A model generated the notes under the pieces. It was not told the DNA's origin, made no database searches, and saw only the letters and a program-made list of their open reading frames with translations. Shown in pieces: positions 4,388-38,835 of a stretch of 64,000 bases of DNA; position 1 is the stretch's first letter, and the number at the start of each line of letters is the position of its first letter. Made by a program: the position numbers and the translations under genes. The DNA comes from Deltaproteobacteria bacterium (GTDB taxonomy: Bacteria; Bdellovibrionota; JAJCYS01): positions 21,898 through 85,897 of the forward strand of contig JAJCYS010000008.1 in assembly GCA_029262815.1 (NCBI GenBank). Direction: 5' to 3'.

Positions 4388-6772
4388 ATGGGCTACGAGC
4401 ATCTCAAAATTGAACAAAAATGGCAAAAGCACTGGGAAACACACCAAACCTTTAAAGTCGAAGACACCTCAGAAAAACCTAAATACTATGTCCTAGATAT
4501 GTTCCCCTACCCGTCTGCTAATGGGTTGCATGTGGGACATCTTGAGGGATATACCGCATCTGACATTGTTGCGCGATATAAACGGATGGCTGGATTTCAC
4601 GTTCTACACCCTATGGGTTGGGATAGCTTTGGATTGCCTACCGAAAACTATGCCATACAAGTCAAGCGACACCCAGCTGATATTACAAAAGAGAATATTG
4701 CCCAGTTCAAGAGGCAAATTAAGTCCGTGGGATTCAACTACGATTGGTCAAGAGAGATTACAACCTCAAACCCTGACTATTATAAGTGGACACAGTGGTT
4801 GTTTTTGAAGCTCTACGAAAAGGGCTTAGCCTACGAAGCGGAGATGACCGTCAACTACTGCCCTGAGCTCAAAATTGTCCTTGCAAACGAAGAAGTCATA
4901 GATGGCAAAAGTGAGCGCGGCAACCATCCTGTGACCCGTGTCCCAATGAAACAATGGGTGCTCAAAATCACAGCCTATGCGGACCGCCTGCTCGAAGATC
5001 TTGACGATTTGGATTGGCCCGACCACGTCAAAGAGATGCAACGGAATTGGATTGGCAAAAGTTATGGATCACGCATTACCTTTAATTTAAAATCACACCC
5101 TGGACTATCAACTGACGTGTATACAACCCGGCCCGACACGTTGATGGGGTCAACATTTTTAGTACTGGCTGCTGAGCATCCACTCGTGGATCAGGTCCTC
5201 GATAAAGCCACACCAGAAGCAAAAGCAATCATCCAAAAAATTCGCAATCAAAGTGAGCGCGAACGGGAAAGCGACACCAAGCAAAAACTTGGTACTCCGC
5301 TACCCATCGAAGCAGAGCATCCTATAACGGGGAACCCGCTCCCTGTTTGGGTTGCCAATTATGTGCTACTGAACTATGGCACGGGCGCTATTATGGCTGT
5401 CCCAGCCCATGATGAACGAGATCACGAATTTGCGAAAAGTTACGACCTGCCCATTATTCAAGTCATCAACGAAGATGGCATCTTGCACAATTCAGATCAA
5501 TTCGATGGATTAGAGTCTAAAAAAGCCAAACAAGCGATCACAGCTGAGCTCATTAAAAAAAATCTGGGCAAACAAGAAGTCCGGTATCGACTTCGGGATT
5601 GGATTTTCTCACGCCAACGCTACTGGGGCGAGCCCATCCCACTGTTACATTTTGAAGATGGTACGTGTCGGCCTTTAGAAGCAGATGAATTACCTCTCAC
5701 GCTCCCTGAAGTTGAAAGTTATGAACCAGCGGGAGATGGCAAATCCCCCCTCAGTACAATCCCAGAATGGGTGCACATCACTGACCCCAAAACAAAAAAA
5801 CAGGCTGAACGTGAAACACACACCATGCCCCAATGGGCAGGTAGCTGCTGGTATTATCTGAGGTACATTGATCCCAAAAATACAGAAGCCCCTTGGGATC
5901 CGAAAAAAGAAGCCTATTGGCTTCCCGTGGATTTATATATTGGTGGCGTAGAGCACGCAACGCTCCATCTCCTATATGCCCGTTTTTGGCACAAGGTGTT
6001 TCATGACTGTGGCCTCGTTTCTTCAACGGAGCCGTTCAAAAAACTAGTCAATCAAGGCATGATCTTGGGTGAAGACAACGAGAAGATGTCCAAAAGCCGA
6101 GGCAACGTAGTGAATCCCGATATCATTGTTGAAGAGTTTGGCGCCGACAGCGTGCGGCTCTATGAAATGTTTATGGGGCCACTCGAAATGGTTAAGCCCT
6201 GGAATACACGAGGTATATTAGGCGTCAATCGATTCCTTCACAGACTGTACACCATCATCGAAGGTACGCCTCATGTCCTACTCCATGATGACTCAGCCCC
6301 TACCGAGGCTGAAACAAAGGGGCTCCACAAATGTATTCAAAAAGTTACCGCTGATATTGAAAATTTCAAATTCAATACGGCTATTTCAGAAATGATGTCA
6401 TTTATAAATTTTCTGTATGAGCAAAAACAAGCACACAAGAACACATTGAGCACCTTCGTCACGTTACTTTCTCCATTTGCTCCCCATATCAGTGAAGAGA
6501 TTTGGGAACAACTGGGTCATCAGCCTTGCCTCTCTTTAGCGGACTGGCCTGTATATAATCCTGAATTCATTAAAGAGGATTTGGCTACCATTCCAGTTCA
6601 AGTGAATGGCAAATTAAAAGGCACTGTTTCAGCAGATCCGAATGCTTCCAAAGAGGATCTCTTGGAGTTAGTTGCTCAAGATGAACGACTCGCTAAGTGG
6701 CTGACCCACGAGGGACGTATCAAAACGATCATCGTCCCCAATAAAATTGTCAACATCGTCATCAAATCTTGA
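4388..6772 (+). CDS. leuS: Leucyl-tRNA synthetase
   Basis: 794 aa. Class I motifs HVGH and KMSKS, with LeuRS-type CP1 and anticodon-binding regions. Confidence 0.97.
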   Translation: MGYEHLKIEQKWQKHWETHQTFKVEDTSEKPKYYVLDMFPYPSANGLHVGHLEGYTASDIVARYKRMAGFHVLHPMGWDSFGLPTENYAIQVKRHPADITKENIAQFKRQIKSVGFNYDWSREITTSNPDYYKWTQWLFLKLYEKGLAYEAEMTVNYCPELKIVLANEEVIDGKSERGNHPVTRVPMKQWVLKITAYADRLLEDLDDLDWPDHVKEMQRNWIGKSYGSRITFNLKSHPGLSTDVYTTRPDTLMGSTFLVLAAEHPLVDQVLDKATPEAKAIIQKIRNQSERERESDTKQKLGTPLPIEAEHPITGNPLPVWVANYVLLNYGTGAIMAVPAHDERDHEFAKSYDLPIIQVINEDGILHNSDQFDGLESKKAKQAITAELIKKNLGKQEVRYRLRDWIFSRQRYWGEPIPLLHFEDGTCRPLEADELPLTLPEVESYEPAGDGKSPLSTIPEWVHITDPKTKKQAERETHTMPQWAGSCWYYLRYIDPKNTEAPWDPKKEAYWLPVDLYIGGVEHATLHLLYARFWHKVFHDCGLVSSTEPFKKLVNQGMILGEDNEKMSKSRGNVVNPDIIVEEFGADSVRLYEMFMGPLEMVKPWNTRGILGVNRFLHRLYTIIEGTPHVLLHDDSAPTEAETKGLHKCIQKVTADIENFKFNTAISEMMSFINFLYEQKQAHKNTLSTFVTLLSPFAPHISEEIWEQLGHQPCLSLADWPVYNPEFIKEDLATIPVQVNGKLKGTVSADPNASKEDLLELVAQDERLAKWLTHEGRIKTIIVPNKIVNIVIKS

Positions 6773-9530: not shown

Positions 9531-9559
9531 TTGACCTAGAAAATATATTTATATATAGT
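9531..9559 (+). promoter_or_regulatory. Candidate sigma70 promoter for the pilM-like operon
   Basis: TTGACC (9531-9536), 17-nt spacer, TATAGT (9554-9559). It sits about 120 nt upstream of ATG 9681 in a 285-bp AT-rich intergenic region. Confidence 0.4.
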
Positions 9560-9680: not shown

Positions 9681-10751
9681 ATGTTTTTATTATCTCGTAA
9701 CGAACATCATATATATTTGGATTTTGGGGGCTACTATACTAAAGTTGCCTATCTAACAAAACAGGGATCAAATCTTAAAGTTCAAAAATGTGTCCTAGAA
9801 CCGACGCCAGATGAATGCTTATCTGAAGAAGCTCCGACAGACCCACTGCGTATCAAAGAATTTCTATTTAAAACCCTCAAGCAATTTACACCAAGCGTAC
9901 GCAAAGAGGCTGAATACCATCTCATTTCTCCTGACCCCCATACCTTGATCAAGAAACTTCATCTACCGAAACCCCTACCAAAAGATCTAAATCAGCAAAT
10001 GGGCTTCGAAGCCGCCCAATATGCCCCCTATCCCATCGAAGATGCAGTTGTAGACTTCACCCGTGTGGATGACGATCCTTTTTTTAGAAATACGCTTGAT
10101 GAGAAAGAAGCGCAAATGCTTCTCACAATTACAAAAAACACGAGTATTCGACCGTGGATTACCTTATTTGAGGAAATGGACACCCCTTTAAGCTCGGTTG
10201 TGCCTGGAAGCGTTGGATTGTTAAACTTTGGCCTCCACTTACTCAGATCTCATCAGGCACACGATCAGTTGGCTTTAGTGCACATCGGAGATCGAAGCAC
10301 ACTCATGCTTTATATTTCTCAAGATTTGATTCGATTTTATTATGAACCCTGTGGGCTACTGGACTGCATTACACAAGCCACGAAACAATGCCATCTAACC
10401 TTACAAGAAGGTCGCTATTTTGCTACACATTTGTCCCAAAAAGATATCCCTGAGCTTTTTGTATCGTGCTTTTACAATGGGCTGTCCCGATTTACTGAGG
10501 ATATTACGGCCCGTTTACTCAAGTTATGTCCCCAACAAGAAGACAAAAAAACACGTGTACTCGTATCTGGCGGTGCTTGCTGTGTCTCCGAGCTCACCCA
10601 ACTCGTAGGCCGAGCACCTGAGTTGACGGTTGATTTACTGACGCCTGAATCCTACACCTCTCATCTCACGTTCGCTACACCAGGTATTCAAAACACTGTT
10701 TTCACCTTCTTTCCCAGCCTTTTAGGCCTTACAGGGAAAACAACCTCATGA
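9681..10751 (+). CDS. pilM: PilM-like actin-fold pilus assembly protein
   Basis: 356 aa. The N-terminal YLDFGGYYTKVA phosphate-1-like motif and a later SGGAC motif fit the size and order expected of PilM. First gene of the overlapped cluster. Confidence 0.7.
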   Translation: MFLLSRNEHHIYLDFGGYYTKVAYLTKQGSNLKVQKCVLEPTPDECLSEEAPTDPLRIKEFLFKTLKQFTPSVRKEAEYHLISPDPHTLIKKLHLPKPLPKDLNQQMGFEAAQYAPYPIEDAVVDFTRVDDDPFFRNTLDEKEAQMLLTITKNTSIRPWITLFEEMDTPLSSVVPGSVGLLNFGLHLLRSHQAHDQLALVHIGDRSTLMLYISQDLIRFYYEPCGLLDCITQATKQCHLTLQEGRYFATHLSQKDIPELFVSCFYNGLSRFTEDITARLLKLCPQQEDKKTRVLVSGGACCVSELTQLVGRAPELTVDLLTPESYTSHLTFATPGIQNTVFTFFPSLLGLTGKTTS

Positions 10752-11485
10752 GTGATATAAACCTACTGAATGACATCACGAATACTAATTCAAAAAAATC
10801 GAGAAAGTCGTTATTCGGAGGCCTTTTTTCTTCTTCTAATAAAGATCCCAAAAAACCGAAAAAATCGAGCCCCAAGCTCAGATCCCTCATTTACTTTTTC
10901 ATCCCACTTATCGCCTGTATCGCATTAGAAGGCATGTTTGAAGAATGGGCATTAGAAGCAACACAAAAATTAACCCGAACGCTATCCCAAAAGCAAAAAC
11001 AATTGACTAAAAACAACGACCGAACCCCTACCTCAGCTTCCCCTATGAAATCTGATTCACATGCAGTTCAGCAACTTACTAGAATTGCGCCTGAGAGTTG
11101 GATAAAACTTAAAGACGCATTATCTTCTGATCTACGTATGTTAGCGCCTTATAACAGTAAGGTTGACCCGCTAAGATCAAAAAACTATTTGCAACAGATG
11201 AGTCAAGCGTTGCCAAAAGAGGTATGGGTAAAACGATTTTCAATTCAGACCCAAAAACCGCTAATATCAGTAGAAGGATATGCCTTTACCTCCGAAAGCG
11301 TCCTGCTGTTCCTTTCTAATCTCAAAAAACAATCTCTCTTTCAAGGCATTGACCTATCTTTTTCCAAACCTACAAGAGATCATGGATTGCTAGAGCACCA
11401 CTTTCAGATGAAAACACCAGGAGATACCCCTACCCATCTCTCATGGATTCCGATTAGGAACTCATTAACTTGGGGGTTACTATGA
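10748..11485 (+). CDS. pilN: PilN-like bitopic membrane protein
   Basis: N-terminal MSDINLLND (the INLL motif typical of PilN), a K-rich linker and a single TM (LIYFFIPLIACIALEGMF). ATGA overlap with pilM. Confidence 0.65.
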   Translation: MSDINLLNDITNTNSKKSRKSLFGGLFSSSNKDPKKPKKSSPKLRSLIYFFIPLIACIALEGMFEEWALEATQKLTRTLSQKQKQLTKNNDRTPTSASPMKSDSHAVQQLTRIAPESWIKLKDALSSDLRMLAPYNSKVDPLRSKNYLQQMSQALPKEVWVKRFSIQTQKPLISVEGYAFTSESVLLFLSNLKKQSLFQGIDLSFSKPTRDHGLLEHHFQMKTPGDTPTHLSWIPIRNSLTWGLL

Positions 11486-11523
11486 GTAGAAGACAGTTGT
11501 TAAAATAGGGATAGAGCAGGTTC

Positions 11524-12156
11524 ATGAGACCATTAACTTTTTTTTGGATTGGATTATTAGTCGGAATCGGCTATTTAGGCAGCAGTTTTTATATTCATCT
11601 CAATTTAATCGAGAAAACAGGCAAAAAAGTAACCAAAAAATTGACTGAGTTAAAAAAAGAGAGTTCGAAAAGAAAACCCACTCAGGCTACAACGCCAGCA
11701 CAACAGCTTGTGACTACCCCACAAATGACTCAACCTCCACAGACATCCCATCCCATTAAAACGGAGATAACCGATTTACTGGAAAGGGTGAGATCCCTAG
11801 AAAGTACATTTTCGAATGCTCAACAAAACATCCAGAACATGGTGACTCGTCTTGTAAAGTTAGGTAAGCAACATCATTTAACCTTTCTTGATTACCAAAA
11901 ACATGGCTCGAAGACATTAAACCAGACCTCAAGTGTCACGACATTTTCAGCCACTTTATCGCTTGGTGGACAGTTTGAGCATATCCTGAATTATCTTGGG
12001 GCATTGCATGAACGGAGCCTGGCATTGCCGCTCATGCAAGTCGAAGTGCTCGCAACCTCCGAAGACAATACAATGTTGAGGCTCAAATTCAGTTACCCCA
12101 ATAATTTGCCTACCCTCATCGAAAAATACCAATCTAAATTAAGCGAGACTTTATGA
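11524..12156 (+). CDS. pilO: PilO-like bitopic membrane protein
   Basis: N-terminal TM (FFWIGLLVGIGYLGSSFYI), a P/T/Q-rich linker, a coiled coil and a C-terminal PilO-like region (ATLSLGGQFEHILNYLGALH). Confidence 0.6.
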   Translation: MRPLTFFWIGLLVGIGYLGSSFYIHLNLIEKTGKKVTKKLTELKKESSKRKPTQATTPAQQLVTTPQMTQPPQTSHPIKTEITDLLERVRSLESTFSNAQQNIQNMVTRLVKLGKQHHLTFLDYQKHGSKTLNQTSSVTTFSATLSLGGQFEHILNYLGALHERSLALPLMQVEVLATSEDNTMLRLKFSYPNNLPTLIEKYQSKLSETL

Positions 12157-12539
12157 TCAAACAATGGGGGATGTTTGCAGCATGTGTAACTTTTCTACTA
12201 ACGCCATCCTTTGGGTATACAAAAGCCCGTGAGCCCTTTCGTCCGCTCCTTACGCATGCGAAAAACGGACTGACCAGTAAACGATTTCCTTTCGAAAGTT
12301 ACAAAGCGATCGGGCTTATGAAAAGCCAGCGAATTGAATCTTTGATATTAGAAGCGCCAAATGGTGAGATCTTTGCGATCCTGAAACAGGAGACCTTAGG
12401 TCTAGAACAGTTTAAATGGAGTCATACCCGTTTTGCTTTTAAAGAAACTGTGATCACATTCACAAAATCAATAAAAAACATGAATGGCGCATCCATCACC
12501 CACAAAAAAGCAAAACGGATCCTTAGGGGGCAGCCTTAA
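12153..12539 (+). CDS. pilP: PilP-like small periplasmic/lipoprotein component
   Basis: 128 aa with a signal sequence, then REPFRPLL (resembling the PilP (R)DPF motif) and a beta-rich C-terminus. ATGA overlap upstream and TAATG overlap downstream. Confidence 0.55.
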   Translation: MIKQWGMFAACVTFLLTPSFGYTKAREPFRPLLTHAKNGLTSKRFPFESYKAIGLMKSQRIESLILEAPNGEIFAILKQETLGLEQFKWSHTRFAFKETVITFTKSIKNMNGASITHKKAKRILRGQP

Positions 12540-13987
12540 TGATCGCTCGAAAATACTGGTACTTTGTAGGAATAAACCTGCTGTTTCTAAGTCTGTCAAC
12601 GTTAGCTTTCGATAATCCTAAGGTGTTTTCTATCAATGATGATTTAGATTTATTTTCTCCTCACCAAAAAGGTGAAACTCGGAAACTGGCTTCAGAAACC
12701 CTGTCTTTAGTTAAGAAATCCAAACAAAGTGAAACGATATCCACCCTCGCAGAGGTGACATCTCCTGTAATTGTACCTCCCAGAGTCAATCGTATCATTC
12801 AAGCTGAAAAACCAAATGCGCCTCTTTTGCTCGAGCGTGTTGACGAGCTGGGCAAAAAAGTGCCTTTGCAAACCGTAGACGTAAGTCAACTGAATTGGAC
12901 CCGGCCTGAAATTAAACGATCCCTGCAAACAGCAACTGCACCCTCTCAGAGAAACATGCGGTCACGCTCTCTAGACAGGCCATCGGTGAGAACAAGTCCA
13001 CAGATCGATTATAGACCTACAGCCACAGCACAACCTTCACCGTCCTATATTGGACAACAACCTACAATATCTCTTCACCTTGCAAAAGTGCCCATTGCAG
13101 TGGCCTTAAAAGCCCTAGCTCATATGATTAAAAAGGATTTAGTTCTCCCACAACCCATCCCAGGCAGCATTACGATCTTTGTTCAAAATCAGCCCTGGTC
13201 AAAAGTATTAGATCTGATTCTAAAATCCAGCCCCTATACCTGGAATTTAGATAAAACAATTCTCGTCGTACACAAAGAAGGGCCTGCTGCACCCGAAAAG
13301 CGAAACCTTCAACACAGGGAATTTTTCTTAAACTATTTGACCGCCAAACAAGCCGCCAAATTGGTCCGCCCCTTTCTTTCAAAAAATGGCCAGGTCAGTC
13401 CTCACGCAAATCGCAACATATTGATCGTTGCGGATACATCCGAGGTGCTTGAGACTATAGCCCGAATTGTTGAGGCAGGCGACTTACCTAGACAAACAGT
13501 ACGAATCAAAACATTATGGGCAGAGCTCTCACCTGAAGCAGCAAATTCTTTAGGTATTCGACAATCTCATGGGCACTTTACACTCGGGCAGAGTTATAAC
13601 GCGCTTCGAACAAAACTCAGAGCCCTCGAATCAAGTGGGCAAGTGACCGTACTCTCAGATCCTCAAATCATTACCCTCAATCATCGGGAATCTAAACTTA
13701 CTCAGACCGATTTATATACCAAGTATCGCGCGACTCTAGTACACAGCATCTCCACAAGCTTTAAACCCCAGGTAATCAATAATCAATGGATTGAACTCAC
13801 GATCAACTTAACCCATAGCAATCCCAGCCACCGAAACGACACACCAGAGCATACCCAAACGACGCACACGACCCTTCTCGTCAAGCCTGAAGATACAATA
13901 GCCATCGGGGGACTCAGCCCTATGCATACGGGCAAAAGCCAAGGTGAACGCGTCCTGATTGCTTTTATTTCTGCTGACTTACTTTAG
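12539..13987 (+). CDS. pilQ: PilQ-like secretin, divergent (N0 + N1 + short secretin domain lacking the C-terminal VPxLGxxPxLGxLF motif)
   Basis: N0-like ISLHLAKVPIAVALKALAHMIKKDLVLPQPIPGSITIFVQNQPWSKVLDLIL. N1-like FFLNYLTAKQAAKLVRPFLS...ILIVADTSEVLETI...RQTVRIKTLWAEL. Secretin core: LESSGQVTVLSDPQIITLNHRES...IAIGGL...LIAFISADLL. Confidence 0.65.
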   Translation: MIARKYWYFVGINLLFLSLSTLAFDNPKVFSINDDLDLFSPHQKGETRKLASETLSLVKKSKQSETISTLAEVTSPVIVPPRVNRIIQAEKPNAPLLLERVDELGKKVPLQTVDVSQLNWTRPEIKRSLQTATAPSQRNMRSRSLDRPSVRTSPQIDYRPTATAQPSPSYIGQQPTISLHLAKVPIAVALKALAHMIKKDLVLPQPIPGSITIFVQNQPWSKVLDLILKSSPYTWNLDKTILVVHKEGPAAPEKRNLQHREFFLNYLTAKQAAKLVRPFLSKNGQVSPHANRNILIVADTSEVLETIARIVEAGDLPRQTVRIKTLWAELSPEAANSLGIRQSHGHFTLGQSYNALRTKLRALESSGQVTVLSDPQIITLNHRESKLTQTDLYTKYRATLVHSISTSFKPQVINNQWIELTINLTHSNPSHRNDTPEHTQTTHTTLLVKPEDTIAIGGLSPMHTGKSQGERVLIAFISADLL

Positions 13988-14031
13988 GGCGTGTCCTCAT
14001 AAGGGACTTGGCACAGGTTTTGCATTAATAC

Positions 14032-15405
14032 ATGCGCATGGGGATGCGTAGCGCTGCAGTGTTAATCACCTTGAGCTTTGCATCTATCTGTAGCGCTAGC
14101 GCTCCCCGGTATGCACCTATCGTGCTCAACCACCATTTGTATTATGGACAGAGTTATACGTACCCCATTTTTTTTGTGCCTAAGGAAGTTATTTTTCATC
14201 CGTCATCTGGTGTAAAAGTAGCTTGGCATGAACAAACCCATGCGCTCCGATTTACGACAACCAAAGAAGGTGTGTTTGGCGTCCAGGTTTTGCATCCAAA
14301 CGGCACTTGGTATCATCTACATGTCACGGTTTATCCGCCTCATTTGAAATCACTTGCGGAAGTTTTCCAAATTTTATGTTTGCGAGGGGGCGTAATCAGT
14401 TCGTCATTTCGTTCAGAAAATATGATCCATGTTTCGGGTATCGTATATGGTCTGAAAGACTGGATTTTTTATAGTAAATCGGTTCAGAAATTTTCAACTT
14501 CCTTGTATTCTTCCGTCACCTTGTATACGCCTGCTTTGTACCTGCTGGTCAATACCATGAATCAATGGGTGGATGACACATTTAAAAAATCCTTGAAACT
14601 TTCATACGCAGACCAGGCACTATCAGTCAAAGGGCATCTGACTTCTCCCACTGACAAAGAGAAGCTTTTAAAAGGGCTTAACACTTTCTTCCCTAAAATA
14701 AATAGTACGCACCTTTATACGGGGTTGACGCAACAAGATCAACTCCATCTCTCTCTTGAATTTTTAGAAGTTAAAAATGGACAATCACTGCAATTTGGCG
14801 TCAATCACGCTCAACCCATTTTGCTTCGACCTAGTGGGACACTATGGGCGGCTTTACATGCATTACTCAAATCAGGAAAAGCGAAGGTCCTCTCAAATCC
14901 CAAGGTGATCGCTCGGTATCACAAACCCGCGCACTTACACATCGGCGGTGAGTTGCCTTATGAAATTAAAACGAAGCACCGCCTTAATTTAGGGTGGAAG
15001 AAATATGGGATTGTGCTTGAAATTACACCCACCCCTGTTGAAAAGGCATCTGTCCATCTTCAATTTAAATTAACGGTGTCTTATCCTACGGCCTCACCCA
15101 CAACCAGTACCCATTTGCCAGCATTTAGCACCCGGTCGATTCAGTCGGAGGTCGTTGTCCCCTTGGGGCACACAGCAATATTGTCTGGCATGTTTCACCA
15201 GCTCAGCCATGACAACACAACGGGTACTCCTTTTTTAGGCCGAGTACCTTTATTAGGCTACCTATTTAAGACAAGCAGCATCGAACACAAACAGACGGAA
15301 TTAATTGTCTCTATTACGCCCAAACCTTATGGAAAAACAAGTCATGCCACACACGCCCGGCATAACTTACTGAATACACAGATACCCCATGTGCCAAAAC
15401 TCTAG
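14032..15405 (+). CDS. CpaC/RcpA-like secretin
   Basis: Signal peptide, then a beta-rich pilus-N-terminal-type domain (GQSYTYPIFF...VFGVQVLHPNGTWYHLHVTVYP). Canonical secretin C-terminus: KVLSNPKVIA..., GTPFLGRVPLLGYLFKTSSIEHKQTELIVSITPKP. Confidence 0.75.
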   Translation: MRMGMRSAAVLITLSFASICSASAPRYAPIVLNHHLYYGQSYTYPIFFVPKEVIFHPSSGVKVAWHEQTHALRFTTTKEGVFGVQVLHPNGTWYHLHVTVYPPHLKSLAEVFQILCLRGGVISSSFRSENMIHVSGIVYGLKDWIFYSKSVQKFSTSLYSSVTLYTPALYLLVNTMNQWVDDTFKKSLKLSYADQALSVKGHLTSPTDKEKLLKGLNTFFPKINSTHLYTGLTQQDQLHLSLEFLEVKNGQSLQFGVNHAQPILLRPSGTLWAALHALLKSGKAKVLSNPKVIARYHKPAHLHIGGELPYEIKTKHRLNLGWKKYGIVLEITPTPVEKASVHLQFKLTVSYPTASPTTSTHLPAFSTRSIQSEVVVPLGHTAILSGMFHQLSHDNTTGTPFLGRVPLLGYLFKTSSIEHKQTELIVSITPKPYGKTSHATHARHNLLNTQIPHVPKL

Positions 15406-16774
15406 CCCCACGCTTTTGACTGCTGTTCATTATTTTGATTTCCACAGAGATCAACGTTCTCTTTTTTACAATGTGGGCGAACAGGTATCGATTGGTCCCT
15501 ACACACAGTGTCAGGTTACCTTGCCAACACCCTCTTTGTTCAAAGGTGTGGTTACGTTGAATGACAGACATGAATTGACGCAATTCAAAAATTTTCACAT
15601 GTTTCAAACCGCTGATCAGGCTATGCCTTGCTTCTTGTTTCGAGGATTAAAAAATGAAACCTGGACGCAGGAACAAGATGGCATCATGCTCACTATTCGT
15701 CGATCATGGCAGCCGTTTGAACTCCTCATTGACACTTTGGTTGAAGAGATCAGTTTTGCACCCACAGATTCGCTTGAAAAACAAATTTCAACATTACTGC
15801 CAGAAGAAATTTTAGCCCTTTGGCCCTTGGATCAAATTACACATGCCATCACACAACATCAGTCGGGATTCGGCGATATCGACGCCTTGATGAAAAACAG
15901 CGAGGTTACGGAAATTCTAGTGAATGGATGCGAAAGTGTGTATTACGAAAAAAACGGTGAAATGATTCGCCACGAAGCCGTACTTTCATCTTTACGCCTG
16001 GAACGGTTGATAACCAAACTGGTACAAAATACTGGGCGTTCTGTAAACACGAAGCGGCCCATGGTGGATTTTCAACTTCCTTCGGGTGAACGCGTAAACA
16101 TCATTTTGCCCCCGCTATCAAAGCAAGGGGCATTGATCAGTATTCGAAAATTCAAACGCACCTTAAATTCGCTCGATGCGCTCAGTGAAAAAGGTACGTT
16201 TAATGAAGAAGCCAAAATAAAACTTAAAGAGTGTGTGCTGTCTAAGAAAAATATTTTGGTCTCTGGGGGAACGGGAACCGGAAAGACAACGTTATTGAAT
16301 GCGCTTCTTTCAGCAACGAGCAAGACTGAACGGCTTCTGATTGTCGAAGACTCGAGCGAACTTGCACCTGATCATCCGCATACATTGAGCCTTGAGGCTC
16401 GACCCCCTAATGAAGATCCCCAAAACGAAATTACCCTTGCAGCATTGATCAAAAACACCCTTCGCATGCGCCCTACACGGGTCATTTGCGGTGAGTGTCG
16501 TGGCCCTGAAGCCTTTCAGATGCTTTTAGCTATGAATTCAGGGCACCCAGGAAGTATGACGACGATTCATGCCAACAGTCCCCTTGAGGCTCTATATCGG
16601 CTGGAGATATTTCTGCTCATGGCAGGCTTCGATGTGCCGCACCGAGCACTTCGTCAATTTATTGCTTCTGCGATCGATGTTGTGGTCCAAATGACCCATA
16701 ATGGCCAGAGACAAATCTCAGAAATGTCCGTTATTAGCCTCGTAGATGGACAATATACCCTTGTTCCTTTATAA
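15389..16774 (+). CDS. CpaF/TadA (VirB11-superfamily) secretion ATPase with atypical N-terminal region
   Basis: Walker A VSGGTGTGKTTLLNAL, Walker B LLIVEDSSEL, and RVICGECRGPEAFQMLLAMNSGHPGSMTTIHANSP. ATG 15389 overlaps the secretin 3' end by 17 nt. Confidence 0.8.
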   Translation: MCQNSSPTLLTAVHYFDFHRDQRSLFYNVGEQVSIGPYTQCQVTLPTPSLFKGVVTLNDRHELTQFKNFHMFQTADQAMPCFLFRGLKNETWTQEQDGIMLTIRRSWQPFELLIDTLVEEISFAPTDSLEKQISTLLPEEILALWPLDQITHAITQHQSGFGDIDALMKNSEVTEILVNGCESVYYEKNGEMIRHEAVLSSLRLERLITKLVQNTGRSVNTKRPMVDFQLPSGERVNIILPPLSKQGALISIRKFKRTLNSLDALSEKGTFNEEAKIKLKECVLSKKNILVSGGTGTGKTTLLNALLSATSKTERLLIVEDSSELAPDHPHTLSLEARPPNEDPQNEITLAALIKNTLRMRPTRVICGECRGPEAFQMLLAMNSGHPGSMTTIHANSPLEALYRLEIFLLMAGFDVPHRALRQFIASAIDVVVQMTHNGQRQISEMSVISLVDGQYTLVPL

Positions 16775-16840: not shown

Positions 16841-17785
16841 ATGAAAAAAGGTCTGTTTTTACGCGCCATACTTATCACGTTATTTGCACTGTGTAGCCAT
16901 ACAGCCATTTCATGTGAGGGTATCCATGAGAAACTTAGAAAACTGAGTTGGTTTCATAGTTACCTTGCCCAAACATTCGAAAGCAGTAAATCCCTGACAA
17001 AAGAAACTGGGGAACGTGCCTTATCCGTTTGGCTGAAAGTGCCTCACTTACTACCTGAAAACGGCGTAGTTCATGTAATAGGACCAGGCGATAATTATTT
17101 TGAATGGGCCATATTCTTGTTGGTCAGACCCGATATCAAGCAAATTATTATCAGTGAAATTGGCAGAAATAATATAGGCGACAATTATGACTTTGATGTC
17201 ATATGGCCCATGTTGAACAAAAAACTCCCTCTTCTACTGGCACGTTCAAAGATTGACACCGTACAGGCACTCAAAAAATTAATTGATGAAAAAATCTGGT
17301 ACAACACGAACATAAATAATAGCCATTTCCCGAAGCATCCTAGACCCTTCTCGGTGTATCCTGTCAGACCCGAATCCAAAGAGTTACCCATTCCTAAAGC
17401 AGATTTAATCCTTTCAGCAAATCCAAACGGTACCCTGATCGATAGACATGCTGACTCTTATTTTTCTCATCTCAAACCGTCAGGGATTATATGGATAATT
17501 ACAGAATTCTATGACAAAAATATTAGACTAGATGAATCCTATGGACAAAATTACATCCCCCTAAACAAAAGTTACCTTTCTTTATTAATGCCCTCTGACC
17601 CAATTCAACGGGCTTTAAAACGTGTTGAATTTCTAGGACAGGGCGTATTTAACGCTAGTAATGCTTTTCTTCTGATGCATCCCACATTGAAACAAGAATC
17701 AATTCGACCAGCTCGTCAATTTGAATCTTTGAAAAGCCCTGACAATGAACAAGATTCAGACCCAAGGCCCAGAACACATCGTTAG
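16841..17785 (+). CDS. Exported protein with class I SAM-methyltransferase-like motif order
   Basis: Signal peptide MKKGLFLRAILITLFALCSHTAIS. Rossmann-like VVHVIGPGDN (motif I-like), IIISEIG (acidic end of beta2), ADLILSANP and LKPSGIIWIITEF. Call made from motifs only. Confidence 0.4.
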   Translation: MKKGLFLRAILITLFALCSHTAISCEGIHEKLRKLSWFHSYLAQTFESSKSLTKETGERALSVWLKVPHLLPENGVVHVIGPGDNYFEWAIFLLVRPDIKQIIISEIGRNNIGDNYDFDVIWPMLNKKLPLLLARSKIDTVQALKKLIDEKIWYNTNINNSHFPKHPRPFSVYPVRPESKELPIPKADLILSANPNGTLIDRHADSYFSHLKPSGIIWIITEFYDKNIRLDESYGQNYIPLNKSYLSLLMPSDPIQRALKRVEFLGQGVFNASNAFLLMHPTLKQESIRPARQFESLKSPDNEQDSDPRPRTHR

Positions 17786-17794
17786 GACACAAAC

Positions 17795-18583
17795 CTATTG
17801 CGTATCCTTAGACATGCCATCCTCAGCTAGTTCTGTGCGACGTGTGTGTTCAATTTTTTCTTTTTCTTCAGAGAAATAAGGCAGATGGGCATTGGCGAGT
17901 TCTTGAAGATTCTGATCTGTTGAGCTAGACAAGTGCTTTGTATATGCATAACCAAGCTCAACCGCATCACTATATAATTTGTAGTTCAGACCAATAAATA
18001 TTTCATACATCGTGTATATATAGACATTAGCGACAAGAAACTTAGGACCCGAACGTTCGTCAGGGTGTACCGTAGAAGTCTCTTTGGGGTCGAATCGACT
18101 AAGACCATATTCAATAGTTTCCATGTCAACAGCACGTACGATATCCAGGCCTCTCAAGATTTCTTTTGCAATCATATGTTGAATTTGTACAACCAATTTT
18201 ACAAACTGAGCCCCTTTTACACAGGATTCGATTTCTTGATATTTTTGAATCTCTCTTTGAGTTCCTCTTTTCCACTGTGAAATTGGTTTTTGATACCGTT
18301 TGATCCGACCTCGAATTTGGCTCATCCATTTCCAAGCAGATGCACCCACATGAATGTTTTGATCTAATTTTAGCTCAATCTTGTGTGCACGCCTCGATAA
18401 GTCGTTAAGTGCCTGCTCAGTTTCACTTAAAGCTGCAAGTGTTTTCTCAAAAAACATGAGCGCTTTCGTTTGGTCCAATGCCGCTTTATTAACTTGATCT
18501 CCATCACAGAGCTCCAACGCATGAGTCGTCAGAGATCCACTCATACACATAAGACTTACAGCCCACATAACTCTAGTTTTCAT
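17795..18583 (-). CDS. Secreted helical protein, paralog 1 of a tandem triplet
   Basis: Signal peptide ...SGSLTTHA, then LELCDGDQVNK, a second conserved Cys (ESCVKG) and LPYFSEEKEKIE near the C-terminus. GAAGGAG SD. Confidence 0.7.
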   Translation of the reverse strand: MKTRVMWAVSLMCMSGSLTTHALELCDGDQVNKAALDQTKALMFFEKTLAALSETEQALNDLSRRAHKIELKLDQNIHVGASAWKWMSQIRGRIKRYQKPISQWKRGTQREIQKYQEIESCVKGAQFVKLVVQIQHMIAKEILRGLDIVRAVDMETIEYGLSRFDPKETSTVHPDERSGPKFLVANVYIYTMYEIFIGLNYKLYSDAVELGYAYTKHLSSSTDQNLQELANAHLPYFSEEKEKIEHTRRTELAEDGMSKDTQ

Positions 18584-18606
18584 ATAAATACTCCTTCAAC
18601 AAATAT

Positions 18607-33267: not shown

Positions 33268-34976
33268 TTTATAGATGGCAGCTCAATCCACCCCAGTCTA
33301 AATTTAATGATGGGTGTGCTGTTCCTGATTCCCTTAAGTCAGCGATTTCCAAAAAAATCTATAAACAACGATTTTGCAATCCAGAAGCGGGTATGTCCGA
33401 GTCTTATTTTGGCGCCCCTTTAAGCCAACTTCGGGATCCTAGCGACTTGCCCGAACTAGAAGCCGGCGCTGAGTATCTTCACAAACATTTATCTCAAAAT
33501 GGCAGTATTTGTATTTTCGCAGACTACGATGTGGATGGCATTTGTGGTGGAATTTTAGTCTATCAATTTTTAAAGACAGCTTATCCGGATCACAATATTC
33601 AAATTTCTCATAGTGACCGGTTTTCTGAAGGATACGGTCTGCACTTACATCATGTCGATCGCCTTCTCGATTTCAATTGCATACTGACAGTGGACTGCGG
33701 CTCTAACAGTCTTAAAGCGACACAGCGGCTCACTGAATCAGGCTGTGATGTGATCATCACGGATCATCATGAATGTGCCCTGGATCAAGAGGGACGTGTG
33801 ATTCGGCCTAATGCAAAGGCGTTCATCAACCCAAAAAGACAAGATGCCCCTCATTATTATAGTTTTTTGTCCGGCACAGGTGTGGCGTTGATGTTGTGCT
33901 TGGTGATGCGCCGAATTTCTCCTGCATGTGCCTCTACGAAATTGTCTTCTTTTTTAGACTTGGTATGTACGAGTATCATTTCGGATTCGGTGCCTTTGGT
34001 TAATGAAAATAGACTTATTGTTCAATACGGTCTTAAAGTTTTTAATACCATGCCCAGACCTTTCTTCCGAACACTGATGGATGCACCTCATCCACGATTT
34101 GGACCTGTAGATGAAAACACATTGTCTTTTGCTTTGATTCCTAAATTAAACGCACCCGGTCGCTTAGGCAGTACAGAGCCCATTGTCGGCGGGTTGCTGA
34201 GCGAAGATCAAGAATCCATTGAAGCACATGCCAAAACGGCATTGGCGCAGAACAAACAACGTATGGAGATCCAACAAAACAGTTGGATGTTAGTCGAACC
34301 TCTGATTGATGAAAGTAAAAATGTGATCTGCGTCTATCACTCTAAAATTCATGAGGGGGTGATTGGTATTTTAGCAAGCCGAATCGCAGAGAAAACCCAC
34401 AAGCCTTCCATCGTGCTCTGCCCGTCTCAAAACCCCGATGAGATCAAAGGCTCAGGACGAAGCTATGACGGACGATCCGTGTTTGATATTGCAAGCCATT
34501 TCTCTGGACACTTTAAACAGTTTGGTGGACATCAAGCCGCCATTGGATTAACCTTACCCAGATCCAATCTTGATGCATTTCGTAATGGCATTAACGATTA
34601 TGTGCTTCCGGAAAAACCAGCTACCTTAGCAATTGATGACGAAATTCTCATGGATGACATTACGCTTCAGACGGCAATGGATATTCAGAAAATTGGTCCT
34701 TATGGGCAACAGTTTGAAGAGCCTATATTCTTACTTAAAGATGTAGCGATCCCAAAATTGTCCCTGCTTAAAGAAAATCATCTAAAAGGAATTTTGGAGA
34801 GTAGAAACAAGAAAAGGGTGGAATTTTTGGGTTGGAAGCTCGGATATCTTTCGCCCCACCTCTCCCTCGATCATCGATATGATGTTGTGCTAAGGTTGCG
34901 TGTGAATCATTACCAAAATATCAGACGAGTCCAATGCGAAATCCTTGATTTCGAACCCATTTTCAAACATTCCTGA
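33264..34976 (+). CDS. recJ: Single-stranded-DNA-specific exonuclease RecJ
   Basis: DHH-family motifs (IFADYDVDGICG, DCGSN, ITDHH) and DHHA1 (GGHQAAIG). ATGA overlap with secF. Confidence 0.92.
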   Translation: MIYRWQLNPPQSKFNDGCAVPDSLKSAISKKIYKQRFCNPEAGMSESYFGAPLSQLRDPSDLPELEAGAEYLHKHLSQNGSICIFADYDVDGICGGILVYQFLKTAYPDHNIQISHSDRFSEGYGLHLHHVDRLLDFNCILTVDCGSNSLKATQRLTESGCDVIITDHHECALDQEGRVIRPNAKAFINPKRQDAPHYYSFLSGTGVALMLCLVMRRISPACASTKLSSFLDLVCTSIISDSVPLVNENRLIVQYGLKVFNTMPRPFFRTLMDAPHPRFGPVDENTLSFALIPKLNAPGRLGSTEPIVGGLLSEDQESIEAHAKTALAQNKQRMEIQQNSWMLVEPLIDESKNVICVYHSKIHEGVIGILASRIAEKTHKPSIVLCPSQNPDEIKGSGRSYDGRSVFDIASHFSGHFKQFGGHQAAIGLTLPRSNLDAFRNGINDYVLPEKPATLAIDDEILMDDITLQTAMDIQKIGPYGQQFEEPIFLLKDVAIPKLSLLKENHLKGILESRNKKRVEFLGWKLGYLSPHLSLDHRYDVVLRLRVNHYQNIRRVQCEILDFEPIFKHS

Positions 34977-34999
34977 CCAACCAATACTCGAATTGGCAG

Positions 35000-36139
35000 T
35001 TAGAAAATCAAGGAATAGTTTGTTGAAGGTCCTTTCCCAAATTTTTGTAAAAAACTTTTATCCACAAGCTGTTTTAACGCATAATAAAGCGTTCTTTCTG
35101 GTAAATCTAACGTCTGTTTTAATATTTTTACTTGAAGTTTTTTTTCAGGATGTTCTTTAAAACAATCTAAAATCATCTTTGAGGAGTTTGACAGGTTTAT
35201 AAAGTCTCGACTTTTTTTGACATTAAACTCAATATCATTTTCTAAAGCTAGTTTTAACATTTTTAATGTGAAATTTAAAAAAAGGTGGATTTTATATTTT
35301 TGAGAATCTTGTTCATATATGCCGTCAGAGCACTGTCTTAATACGTAGTAGTACTCTTCTTTATGCTTCTCGATATGTCGCTCAATAGAAATAAAAGGAA
35401 GAATCGCTTTTAAATACTCATCTGAGGATTGCAGAATTGAGAGCAAAAACAGTCCTCTTCCCAATCGACCATTTCCGTCTTGAAATGGATGGATGGCCAA
35501 AAACCGAAAAGTAAATTCACAAGCAGTGGCTATGGCCCAAGGATATTCTGAATTTGTGGAGTTATACCATTTAATTAAATGGCTCATTGCAACCTCAGTG
35601 ATAGGTCCTGGGTCTGCTGTTTTGAAAATGTCTTTTCTGATATTAGTACCAACAACTGTTTCAACCACATTATTAGGAACTGTTTTATAGTCGCCAAGAT
35701 GAAAATCAGCGGGTGGATAGTATTGGAGAAGCTCCCTGTGTAATCCTTTTATAGTTGATTCAGTGAGTGGTTTCCAATCCCCTGATTGTTTCATAATTAT
35801 ATTTAACATCTGACGACACCCTACTACCTCTTCTATACTTCGTTCTCGCTCCTTTGAAAGTTTATCTTCAATGTACTGTTTTTCATTTTTAAAAGCTGAA
35901 GGCTTACCATCCTTCTTTAAAACGGTGTCCATCCAATCGATTTCTATATTTGTAAGAATAGCGTTTTCTATTCTTGTTGATGATCCAACGGTGCTGATAA
36001 ATGCATATCGTCTTAAAAATTCAAGTTCTTCTTCAGATAGTGATTGAATATACAGTGCTTTTTGAACACATAGATCCGCTGTCTCTTTAAGTTGTTTGGT
36101 GCATTCAGTTCCAATAGAAAAAGATAGCATCTTCTTCAT
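35000..36139 (-). CDS. Fic-domain protein (class II, N-terminal inhibitory helix) with C-terminal winged-helix-like region
   Basis: Fic motif HPFQDGNGRLGR at 35456-35491. Upstream inhibitory motif S-TRI-E-N, i.e. [ST]xxxE[GN]. ATG 36139 (MKKMLSF); the track start at 36166 is TTG. Confidence 0.85.
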   Translation of the reverse strand: MKKMLSFSIGTECTKQLKETADLCVQKALYIQSLSEEELEFLRRYAFISTVGSSTRIENAILTNIEIDWMDTVLKKDGKPSAFKNEKQYIEDKLSKERERSIEEVVGCRQMLNIIMKQSGDWKPLTESTIKGLHRELLQYYPPADFHLGDYKTVPNNVVETVVGTNIRKDIFKTADPGPITEVAMSHLIKWYNSTNSEYPWAIATACEFTFRFLAIHPFQDGNGRLGRGLFLLSILQSSDEYLKAILPFISIERHIEKHKEEYYYVLRQCSDGIYEQDSQKYKIHLFLNFTLKMLKLALENDIEFNVKKSRDFINLSNSSKMILDCFKEHPEKKLQVKILKQTLDLPERTLYYALKQLVDKSFLQKFGKGPSTNYSLIF

Positions 36140-36141
36140 TA

Positions 36142-36188
36142 TGCAATATACTGCAATATACTGCAACTAAAACTTTCATTATATTGCA
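36142..36188. promoter_or_regulatory. Direct/inverted TGCAATATA repeats immediately upstream of the Fic gene (possible operator)
   Basis: TGCAATATAC-TGCAATATAC-TGCAA at 36142-36166, with the inverted partner TATATTGCA at 36180-36188. TATATTGA follows at about 36200. Confidence 0.4.
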
Positions 36189-36310
36189 AATAGCTGATTA
36201 TATTGATATTTTTATTGACCTAGCAATACTAAATGTCTCACAACGAATTACCTAACCTTTACAATTGCGAGCGTAGCAAGTGAGCGGGGATCCATTACTT
36301 ATTCTGGAAA

Positions 36311-38776: not shown

Positions 38777-38835
38777 ATAAAACCTCTTAAAGTTTAATAC
38801 TCACACATGAATCCTAGTTTACCGGCCGCTAATAG

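Follow-up and report, generated by a model that had tools for sequence, protein, structure and literature searches.

A block of seven co-directional genes occupies positions 9681-16774 (+ strand) of a 64,000-nucleotide (nt) stretch of contig JAJCYS010000008.1 (Deltaproteobacteria bacterium, assembly GCA_029262815.1), which is referred to here as the window. Our favored but tentative reading, which we hold at somewhat less than an even chance, is that the block encodes those parts of a single co-regulated hybrid type IV filament machine that span the envelope, without the filament itself. A second reading, in which two ordinary split systems lie side by side, is close to it and nearly as likely. 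In the list of open reading frames (ORFs) the order is PilM, PilN, PilO-like, PilP-like, a first secretin (sec1), a second secretin (sec2) and an ATPase. The ORFs and their coupling overlaps are exactly as described in a first-pass annotation of this DNA, with 4-nt ATGA overlaps between ORF1 and ORF2 (at 10748) and between ORF3 and ORF4 (at 12153), a 1-nt TAATG overlap between ORF4 and sec1 (at 12539) and a 17-nt overlap between sec2 and the ATPase gene (at 15389); the two remaining junctions, ORF2/ORF3 and sec1/sec2, are gaps of 38 and 44 nt. The seven products (lengths in amino acids, aa) are:

9681..10751, + strand: ORF1, PilM-like cytoplasmic actin-fold protein, 356 aa; PF11104 PilM_2, 47.3 bits (cutoff 27)
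10748..11485, + strand: ORF2, PilN-like bitopic inner-membrane protein, 245 aa; PF05137 PilN, 40 bits (cutoff 22.8)
11524..12156, + strand: ORF3, PilO-like bitopic protein, 210 aa; recognized by predicted fold only
12153..12539, + strand: ORF4, putative PilP-like small periplasmic protein with a signal peptide, 128 aa; R-x-P-F-x-P motif, weak assignment
12539..13987, + strand: sec1, PilQ-family secretin, 482 aa, with N0, N1 and a reduced secretin domain; Pfam STN (weak), Secretin_N and partial Secretin
14032..15405, + strand: sec2, complete short secretin without N0, 457 aa; Secretin, 115.6 bits, and predicted layout
15389..16774, + strand: CpaF/TadA-class ATPase, 461 aa, with a clade-specific N-terminal region of ~135 aa; T2SSE, 150 bits

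In the hybrid machine, the cytoplasmic PilM would clamp the INLL N terminus of PilN, and PilN together with the PilO-like protein would form a stator in the inner membrane and periplasm. The PilP-like protein would connect this stator to the N0 and N1 domains of sec1, and the intact Tad-type sec2 probably supplies or shares the outer-membrane channel, because conserved portions of the pore domain are missing from sec1 in the window lineage. The CpaF-class ATPase would be the motor, perhaps docking on PilM via its clade-specific N-terminal region as GspE does on GspL. For a complete machine, genes elsewhere in the genome would have to supply pilin, prepilin peptidase and a polytopic platform protein. 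Both the assembly of these parts into one machine and the production of a filament are inferred. The points in favor of the hybrid reading are the conserved gene order, the spacing of the window genes, which overlap or lie no more than 44 nt apart, and the broken linkage between CpaF and TadBC. More specifically, the machine could be a composite of a PilMNOP stator of the type IVa pilus (T4aP) type, a CpaF-class motor (Tad, archaeal-derived), a PilQ-type N0/N1 adaptor ring and a Tad-type channel. We regard this detailed version as doubtful; if true, it would be a natural recombination of two superfamily branches that are usually treated as separate.

The PilM and PilN assignments of the first-pass annotation, the latter based on an INLL motif and one transmembrane segment, are borne out by hidden Markov model (HMM) matches to PF11104 and PF05137 above their cutoffs. 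The PilM-like protein also aligns with TIGR01175 (pilM) over residues 13-312 with 50 bits, short of the cutoff of 133, and PilM orthologues are 34-40% identical. The PilN-like protein starts with MSDINLLND and has its single transmembrane segment at residues 42-60, and the motif M-x-x-[IV]-N-L-L-[NH]-D is kept in 4 orthologues. ORF3 had been called a PilO, for which no sequence match was found among Pfam, NCBIfam and PDB profiles; the proposal stands on the level of predicted fold, where PilO structures come out on top. The AlphaFold2 (AF2) model of ORF3, like that of sec2 based on a shallow alignment, has a mean predicted local distance difference test score (pLDDT) of 71 and consists of a transmembrane helix, a long helix and two alpha-beta-beta repeats. 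Its top Foldseek match is PilO of Pseudomonas aeruginosa (2rjz, E = 2.4e-4, TM-score 0.61), and PilO entries 3jc8_Oa (Myxococcus xanthus) and 5uvr are also among the top matches. Only 6 relatives of ORF3 were found among 1.84 billion representative proteins, and a profile comparison with PilN gave a match of 14 columns only. ORF3 is thus PilO-like in a sense recognizable by predicted fold only. The REPF motif from which ORF4 had been proposed as a PilP belongs to an R-x-P-F-x-P motif that is conserved in the alignment of ORF4 orthologues, while the support from PF04351 (PilP) is marginal (E = 8.7e-4) and comes from two of the five orthologues, with the window protein itself unmatched. Since the PilP model is touched by so few orthologues, the identification of ORF4 as PilP is plausible but weak. 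A lipobox cysteine is not conserved among the orthologues, as judged from the alignment by eye.

The N0 and N1 domains that the first-pass annotation saw in a PilQ were found in sec1 as STN and Secretin_N, and PilQ is the best-matching family, with a pore domain that is partial. The Secretin domain of sec1 scores 36.8 bits and covers profile positions 1-125 of 169. The best profile match of the protein is PilQ of M. xanthus at 155 bits, and the PilQ model TIGR02515 gives 89.8 bits against a cutoff of 284. The C-terminal segment P-x-L-x-D-I-P-x-L-G-x-L-F is deleted in sec1 of the window and of two related metagenome loci, L003 and L001; other barrel segments are likewise missing from these three proteins, and N0 and N1 are kept. 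The segment is retained in the sec1 orthologues of two further loci, L005 and L008, and in sec2. In L003 sec1 no Pfam secretin match whatsoever was found. On this pattern of losses sec1 would work as an adaptor and not as a pore.

For sec2, a Cpa-type identity had been proposed, which is moderately supported by the predicted layout and not by HMM evidence. Neither N0, N1 nor PF13629 was detected by HMM in sec2, and PF13629 is absent from all six orthologues; a model of the YscD BON-like domain matches the middle region in four of the six. Subtyping by the secretin domain was rejected, as the scores against GspD, RcpA, 8jvb and PilQ are too alike, all lying within ~10 bits. The AF2 model of sec2 (pLDDT 70) shows no N0; a seven-strand beta-sandwich at residues 30-101 is followed by two ring-type alpha/beta domains and then by the secretin domain. 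Its best full-length Foldseek match is a short 502-aa secretin (9wfd/8jvb, E = 1.4e-11), RcpA (8odn) is among the top entries, and matches to VirB9 and outer-membrane-core proteins are weak. RcpA has been described as having no classical N0, a seven-strand VirB9-like N-domain and, in most homologues, an N3 domain (PMC10499894). Because the predicted layout matches this description, the Tad-type assignment of sec2 is moderately supported. The protein is rare, with 2 close homologues only among 5.8 billion clustered proteins. In a profile comparison sec1 and sec2 are only 17% identical; their sequences thus place them in different secretin lineages and not among recent duplicates, and the alternative to the first-pass annotation's two different secretins, that both belong to one subfamily, was checked and is ruled out at this identity.

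Against Caulobacter CpaF structures the ATPase reaches 315 bits, compared with 153 for VirB11, 145 for an archaeal secretion ATPase and ~32-43 for PilT/GspE models and structures. The CpaF/TadA type given in the first-pass annotation is therefore upheld (315 versus ~40 bits), the motifs quoted there are present and a PilB/PilT class is ruled out. The score against TIGR03819 is 285 bits, under the cutoff of 373. Walker A, Walker B and the His-box are present and invariant in six orthologues, and the clade has motifs of its own (ICGECRGP and MNSGHPGSMTT), with no match to PF27713. Outside the clade, the closest database entries carry the name CpaF. There are about 5 close relatives with 45-60% identity, and the remaining matches are ordinary CpaF proteins with ~45% identity over the C-terminal two-thirds. 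No Pfam family matches the N-terminal region, and its resemblance to an FHA domain is not established, an hhalign comparison with the FHA-bearing CpaF P0047 having given a probability of 2%. Five proteins of ~800 aa (P0031, P0032, P0034, P0035 and P0037) also score highly against the window ATPase and contain two tandem T2SSE domains; loci encoding such tandem proteins are L006 (10001-12355) and L009 (2272-4680). The double-length CpaF-like proteins P0031 and P0032 were set aside as relatives, being tandem-domain ATPases from classical Tad or unrelated contexts; P0032 is encoded within a classical Tad locus together with RcpC, a TadZ-like protein, two T2SSF proteins and TadE. None of the tandem-domain proteins is related to the hybrid cluster.

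The related loci are six metagenome contigs (L001-L005 and L008) from one deep delta-proteobacteria-like lineage. Every clade locus that spans the block has the order (HTH_3 regulator)-PilM-PilN-PilO-like-PilP-like-sec1-sec2-ATPase-small acidic protein, with block proteins 18-60% identical between loci and all reading frames intact. The block is therefore more than a chance arrangement, its order recurring in six other metagenome contigs; the comparison of synteny in relatives, to which the first-pass annotation had pointed as a check, thus showed a shared order with intact frames. The HTH_3 (Xre-type) regulator gene lies directly 5' of pilM in L003 (3919-4182), L008 (34-258) and L005 (153-308); the window lacks it and has in its place a 285-nt gap containing a promoter-like site. 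The 5' end of L001 (a JGI contig, positions 1-1450) encodes one peptide stretch on both strands, with a PilM-like C-terminal part (- strand) overlapping a PilN-like ORF (+ strand), and looks like a fold-back misassembly. Two further features lie 3' of the ATPase gene in the window:

16841..20309, genes on both strands: window-specific insertion outside the conserved core, with four genes for signal-peptide proteins; absent at this place in L002, L003, L004, L005 and L008
20471..20683, + strand (longest ORF starts at 20405): small acidic soluble protein, ~70 aa; orthologues directly after the ATPase gene in relatives

Orthologues of the small acidic protein begin ~20-120 nt 3' of the ATPase gene in L002 (3274-3504), L003 (11464-11670), L004, L005 (10876-11088) and L008 (9288-9476). 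They are 62-92 aa long and 34-47% identical, conserve the motifs LSGL[DN]K and DLTL..[MI]R, and have no family match and no PDB match. The protein may be an accessory factor of the system, a membership suggested by gene position only. The 3.6-kb insertion separates the small-protein gene from the ATPase gene in the window. Its first gene encodes a 314-aa signal-peptide protein (16841-17785, + strand), and the other three (17795-20309, - strand) encode tandem paralogues of 262, 270 and 290 aa, also with signal peptides, which are 23-42% mutually identical and share the N-terminal motif ALELCDGDQVNK; an acidic C-terminal tail, GITEEEDKKINPRE[ST]EF, is common to two of the three. The four insertion proteins gave no significant Pfam match.

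Variation between loci is concentrated at one place within the block. In L005 and L008 a gene for a subtilisin-like S8 protease with an I9 propeptide (5108-6478 and 5045-6430, respectively) lies precisely between sec1 and sec2, and in L005 this junction also holds an LPG-synthase/methyltransferase gene on the opposite strand. The junctions within PilM-N-O-P-sec1 and within sec2-ATPase are unbroken in all loci. Because breaks occur only at sec1/sec2, the block is made up of two closely coupled sub-modules that meet at a junction tolerant of insertions. In L003 a lipase-like (GHSLG) gene follows the small-protein gene. The protease and lipase-like genes could be cargo or mere insertions.

Losses and insertions of this kind are also what would be seen if the block were a decaying remnant, no longer working, in a lineage that is losing one or both pilus systems. 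Conserved secretin segments have been lost from sec1 in three lineages, the window has no HTH_3 regulator, insertions occur inside the block and the expected partners are absent nearby. Set against this, the seven frames are intact in every locus over a deep divergence (45-60% identity for the ATPase and 34-40% for PilM), the catalytic and interaction motifs are invariant and the translational-coupling overlaps are kept. We judge decay to be the least probable of the explanations considered, and quite improbable.

The host lineage is deep, scarcely sampled and delta-proteobacteria-like, and it is Gram-negative, with LpxC present. The nearest matches of its elongation factor G (EF-G) are 73% (the L003 contig) and 70% (also a metagenome contig) identical, after which identities plateau at ~68% for Geobacter, Desulfuromonadales, Myxococcota and Zetaproteobacteria. 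No confirmed clade member was found in 185,579 GTDB species genomes, whether scanned with the window ATPase or with the clade motifs ICGECRGP and FQ[ML]LLAMN from the six-sequence ATPase alignment, and a metagenome scan yielded no further clade member and one weak, unrelated locus. The block thus marks an almost unsampled Gram-negative lineage, with envelope proteins that have few or no detectable relatives. A 4550-bp Logan contig from SRR15505518 (L010) carries a LeuRS gene, with LpxC adjacent, whose product is 100% identical to that of the window; that sample therefore contains this organism or one nearly identical to it.

The genes for the other parts of a type IV filament machine were sought in the 64-kb window and in the flanks of the related loci, up to 10 kb each, several contigs being shorter. 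In the 64 kb there is no class III signal peptide motif, pilin-like small ORF or Flp, no T2SSF domain, no polytopic membrane protein of unassigned family, and no pilA, pilB, pilC, pilD or pilT. No prepilin peptidase, PilB/PilT, T2SSF platform protein, TadZ or RcpC was found in the window or in the related-locus flanks. The first-pass annotation, which had noted the lack of pilin, platform, peptidase, PilB/PilT and TadZ beside the cluster, is thus correct on this point. TadB and TadC genes are absent beside the ATPase gene in the window and in L002, L003, L004, L005 and L008, whereas the nearest CpaF genes outside the clade, of which three were examined (P0032, P0040 and P0041), all have two T2SSF genes (TadB/TadC-type) directly downstream. 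The CpaF-TadB-TadC linkage is broken in this clade, in all five loci that show the downstream side.

From these absences the first-pass annotation had proposed a filament-less or cargo-secreting derivative. Here the scaffold would serve, with two channels and the ATPase, for protein export that needs no pilin, platform or peptidase, and the products of the variable secreted-protein genes nearby would be candidate cargo. That neither the window nor any related locus shows pilin, platform or peptidase genes would fit such a machine, as would the variable exported-protein genes inside or beside the block (the S8 protease in L005 and L008, the lipase-like protein in L003 and the four window proteins). 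However, in well-studied bacteria the pilMNOPQ operons also lie apart from pilA, pilBCD and pilT, so the step from missing neighbors to a filament-less machine is not justified, and the absence covers no more than 10 kb of flank per related locus and 64 kb of the window genome. The adjacent secreted-protein genes vary by locus and, because they differ, look like insertions and not like dedicated substrates. No characterized member of the superfamily is known to turn the action of its ATPase into work without a platform protein and pilin-like subunits, in line with the core set given in 10.64898/2026.04.22.720090. The filament-less proposal is unsupported and, in our estimate, improbable.

The explanation that competes most closely with the hybrid machine is that a stand-alone pilMNOPQ operon lies next to a detached secretin-ATPase piece of the Tad/Kil type. 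The T4aP pilin, PilB/C/D and PilT would then be encoded elsewhere, Flp, TadB/C, TadV, RcpC and TadZ would lie in one or more other clusters, and the adjacency would reflect slow genome rearrangement or shared regulation. The pilMNOPQ genes are normally separate from those for pilin, platform and ATPase, which fits this explanation. Further points weigh against a single machine or fit two systems. The presence of two secretins is most simply explained by a pair of conduits belonging to separate machines. The two coupled sub-modules are split between sec1 and sec2 by the protease gene and the opposite-strand gene in L005 and by the protease gene in L008; because of the intervening opposite-strand gene, sec2 and the ATPase gene of L005 must have a promoter of their own. 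Between the window and L003 the whole neighborhood, LeuRS-HD-Ppx ... MutS-CinA-FtsJ-UDG-NfeD-Band7-QueA-Tgt, is syntenic, and since the flanking housekeeping genes are conserved too, the conserved adjacency of the block genes is weak evidence of physical interaction. The presumed loss of the sec1 pore is deduced solely from lost motifs, and standard pil and tad sets are possible elsewhere in a genome of which 64 kb, from a contig of at least 229 kb, were covered. Finally, EF-G places the lineage near delta-proteobacterial groups, and Myxococcus Kil has its predicted Tad components in two clusters, with a short secretin without N0 and an N-terminally extended ATPase (PMC8460266).

Other findings are harder to reconcile with two separate systems. 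None of the three outside loci examined has a CpaF gene without adjacent TadB/C, and in a large survey PilMNOP homologues were lacking or very rare beside Tad genes (PMC6668835). The reduced pore of sec1 is hard to square with an independent working T4aP while PilMNOP is conserved. PilMNOP is intact, with conserved motifs, despite the reduced sec1, which suggests that a working outer-membrane partner has been retained. Likewise, RcpC/CpaB and TadZ, with which a Tad secretin and motor usually work, are absent from every locus, which leaves the PilMNOP/sec1 set as the only alignment partner for sec2. Under the hybrid reading the operon would be a natural experiment on machine modularity, bearing on the compatibility of a CpaF motor with a PilM/N/O stator and on possible cooperation between two secretins; if the halves are separate split systems, it is an ordinary gene-order curiosity.

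The classes of type IV filament machine include T4aP, the type IVb pilus (T4bP), Tad, MSH, Com and the type II secretion system (T2SS). When the block is compared with the T4aP PilMNOPQ set of P. aeruginosa and M. xanthus, it shares the gene order and coupling, the PilM and PilN HMM matches, the INLL motif, the predicted PilO fold and the PilP-like motif, as well as sec1 N0 and N1 domains with PilQ as the best match and an operon that itself lacks pilin, platform and peptidase genes. It differs in a PilO that is undetectable by sequence, a PilP-like protein without a conserved lipobox and a sec1 without a detected AMIN domain, far below the PilQ cutoff and missing C-terminal pore elements. In addition, the operon continues into a second secretin and an ATPase of the CpaF class and not the PilB/PilT class. 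The block is thus only an incomplete, divergent member of the T4aP module.

The likeness to Tad/Flp systems (Caulobacter Cpa and P. aeruginosa Rcp/Tad) lies in the CpaF-class ATPase, in a secretin gene upstream of the ATPase gene and in the predicted structure of sec2, a short protein without N0 in which a beta-sandwich N-domain precedes N3-like domains and the secretin domain, as in RcpA homologues. In contrast to those systems, no Flp, TadV, RcpC/CpaB, RcpB/CpaD, TadZ/CpaE, TadB/C or TadD is found in any locus, sec2 lacks PF13629 and the ATPase has its clade-specific N-terminal region and motifs. On the features examined, with no platform, Flp, TadV, TadZ or RcpC adjacent, the block falls outside the Tad systems.

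In the T2SS, GspL corresponds to PilM plus PilN, GspM to PilO and GspC, which binds the secretin N0, to PilP. PilM-N-O-P-Q with an ATPase therefore parallels the T2SS core GspL-M-C-D with GspE, in which the ATPase docks on the PilM-like domain of GspL. The block resembles the T2SS in this functional parallel of the core and in the secreted-enzyme genes beside or inside some loci, but its ATPase is not of the GspE class, it has no GspF and no pseudopilins, and it has two secretins.

The Kil system of M. xanthus is a Tad-like apparatus for contact-dependent prey killing in delta-proteobacterial predators (PMC8460266). From its description, it resembles the block in being Tad-derived, with an unusually short secretin without N0 (KilC) and an ATPase with an extra N-terminal domain (KilF). 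This extra domain is FHA, and the predicted Tad components of Kil lie in two clusters (PMC8460266). The window locus differs in showing none of the platform proteins, pilins, peptidase and CpaB homologue that Kil possesses, and PilM is not mentioned in the Kil paper (0 occurrences; PMC8460266). In the literature, no described operon combining PilMNOPQ with CpaF, or containing two secretins, was found. The combination of PilMNOPQ with a Tad-type secretin and a CpaF-class motor thus appears to be undescribed, as the first-pass annotation had supposed, no matching system having been found. All of its parts come from families already known, and chimeras are known within the superfamily; the survey cited above suggests a chimeric origin of the chlamydial T2SS (PMC6668835).

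The block is set among housekeeping genes. Upstream are genes for LipA, an M20 peptidase, LpxC, LeuRS, an HD protein and Ppx/GppA, and downstream are those for MutS, CinA, FtsJ, UDG, NfeD, Band 7, QueA, Tgt, YajC, SecDF and RecJ, with a ribosomal protein operon further on. With this setting and a uniform G+C content across the block, the block is not obviously an island or an insert from a phage or plasmid; the latter kind of origin was set aside given the location between LeuRS/Ppx and MutS, the syntenic chromosomal region and the uniform composition. The 285-nt gap before ORF1 contains a candidate promoter:

9531..9559, + strand: candidate sigma-70-type promoter, TTGACC-17 nt-TATAGT; best-scoring match in the gap, consensus match only

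This site, also put forward in the first-pass annotation, is indeed the best upstream match, agreeing with the sigma-70-like consensus at 10/12 positions, but such matches upstream of ORF1 are no commoner than in shuffled sequence. The sole terminator-like site inside the block on the + strand is a weak 5-pair stem within sec1 (12566-12581), and terminator-like sites in the block are likewise no commoner than in shuffled sequence.

Elsewhere in the window, positions 34000-38800 form a low-G+C patch (0.37-0.38 versus ~0.43 elsewhere) that encodes a Fic-domain protein (35000-36166, - strand) and an 821-aa ORF without a Pfam match (36311-38776, - strand); the patch may be acquired DNA. An 894-aa ORF with a GTG start (61237-63921, - strand) lies upstream of S12-S7-EF-G-EF-Tu, at the site expected for rpoC. 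It is shorter than full RpoC and could represent a split rpoC or a mis-set start.

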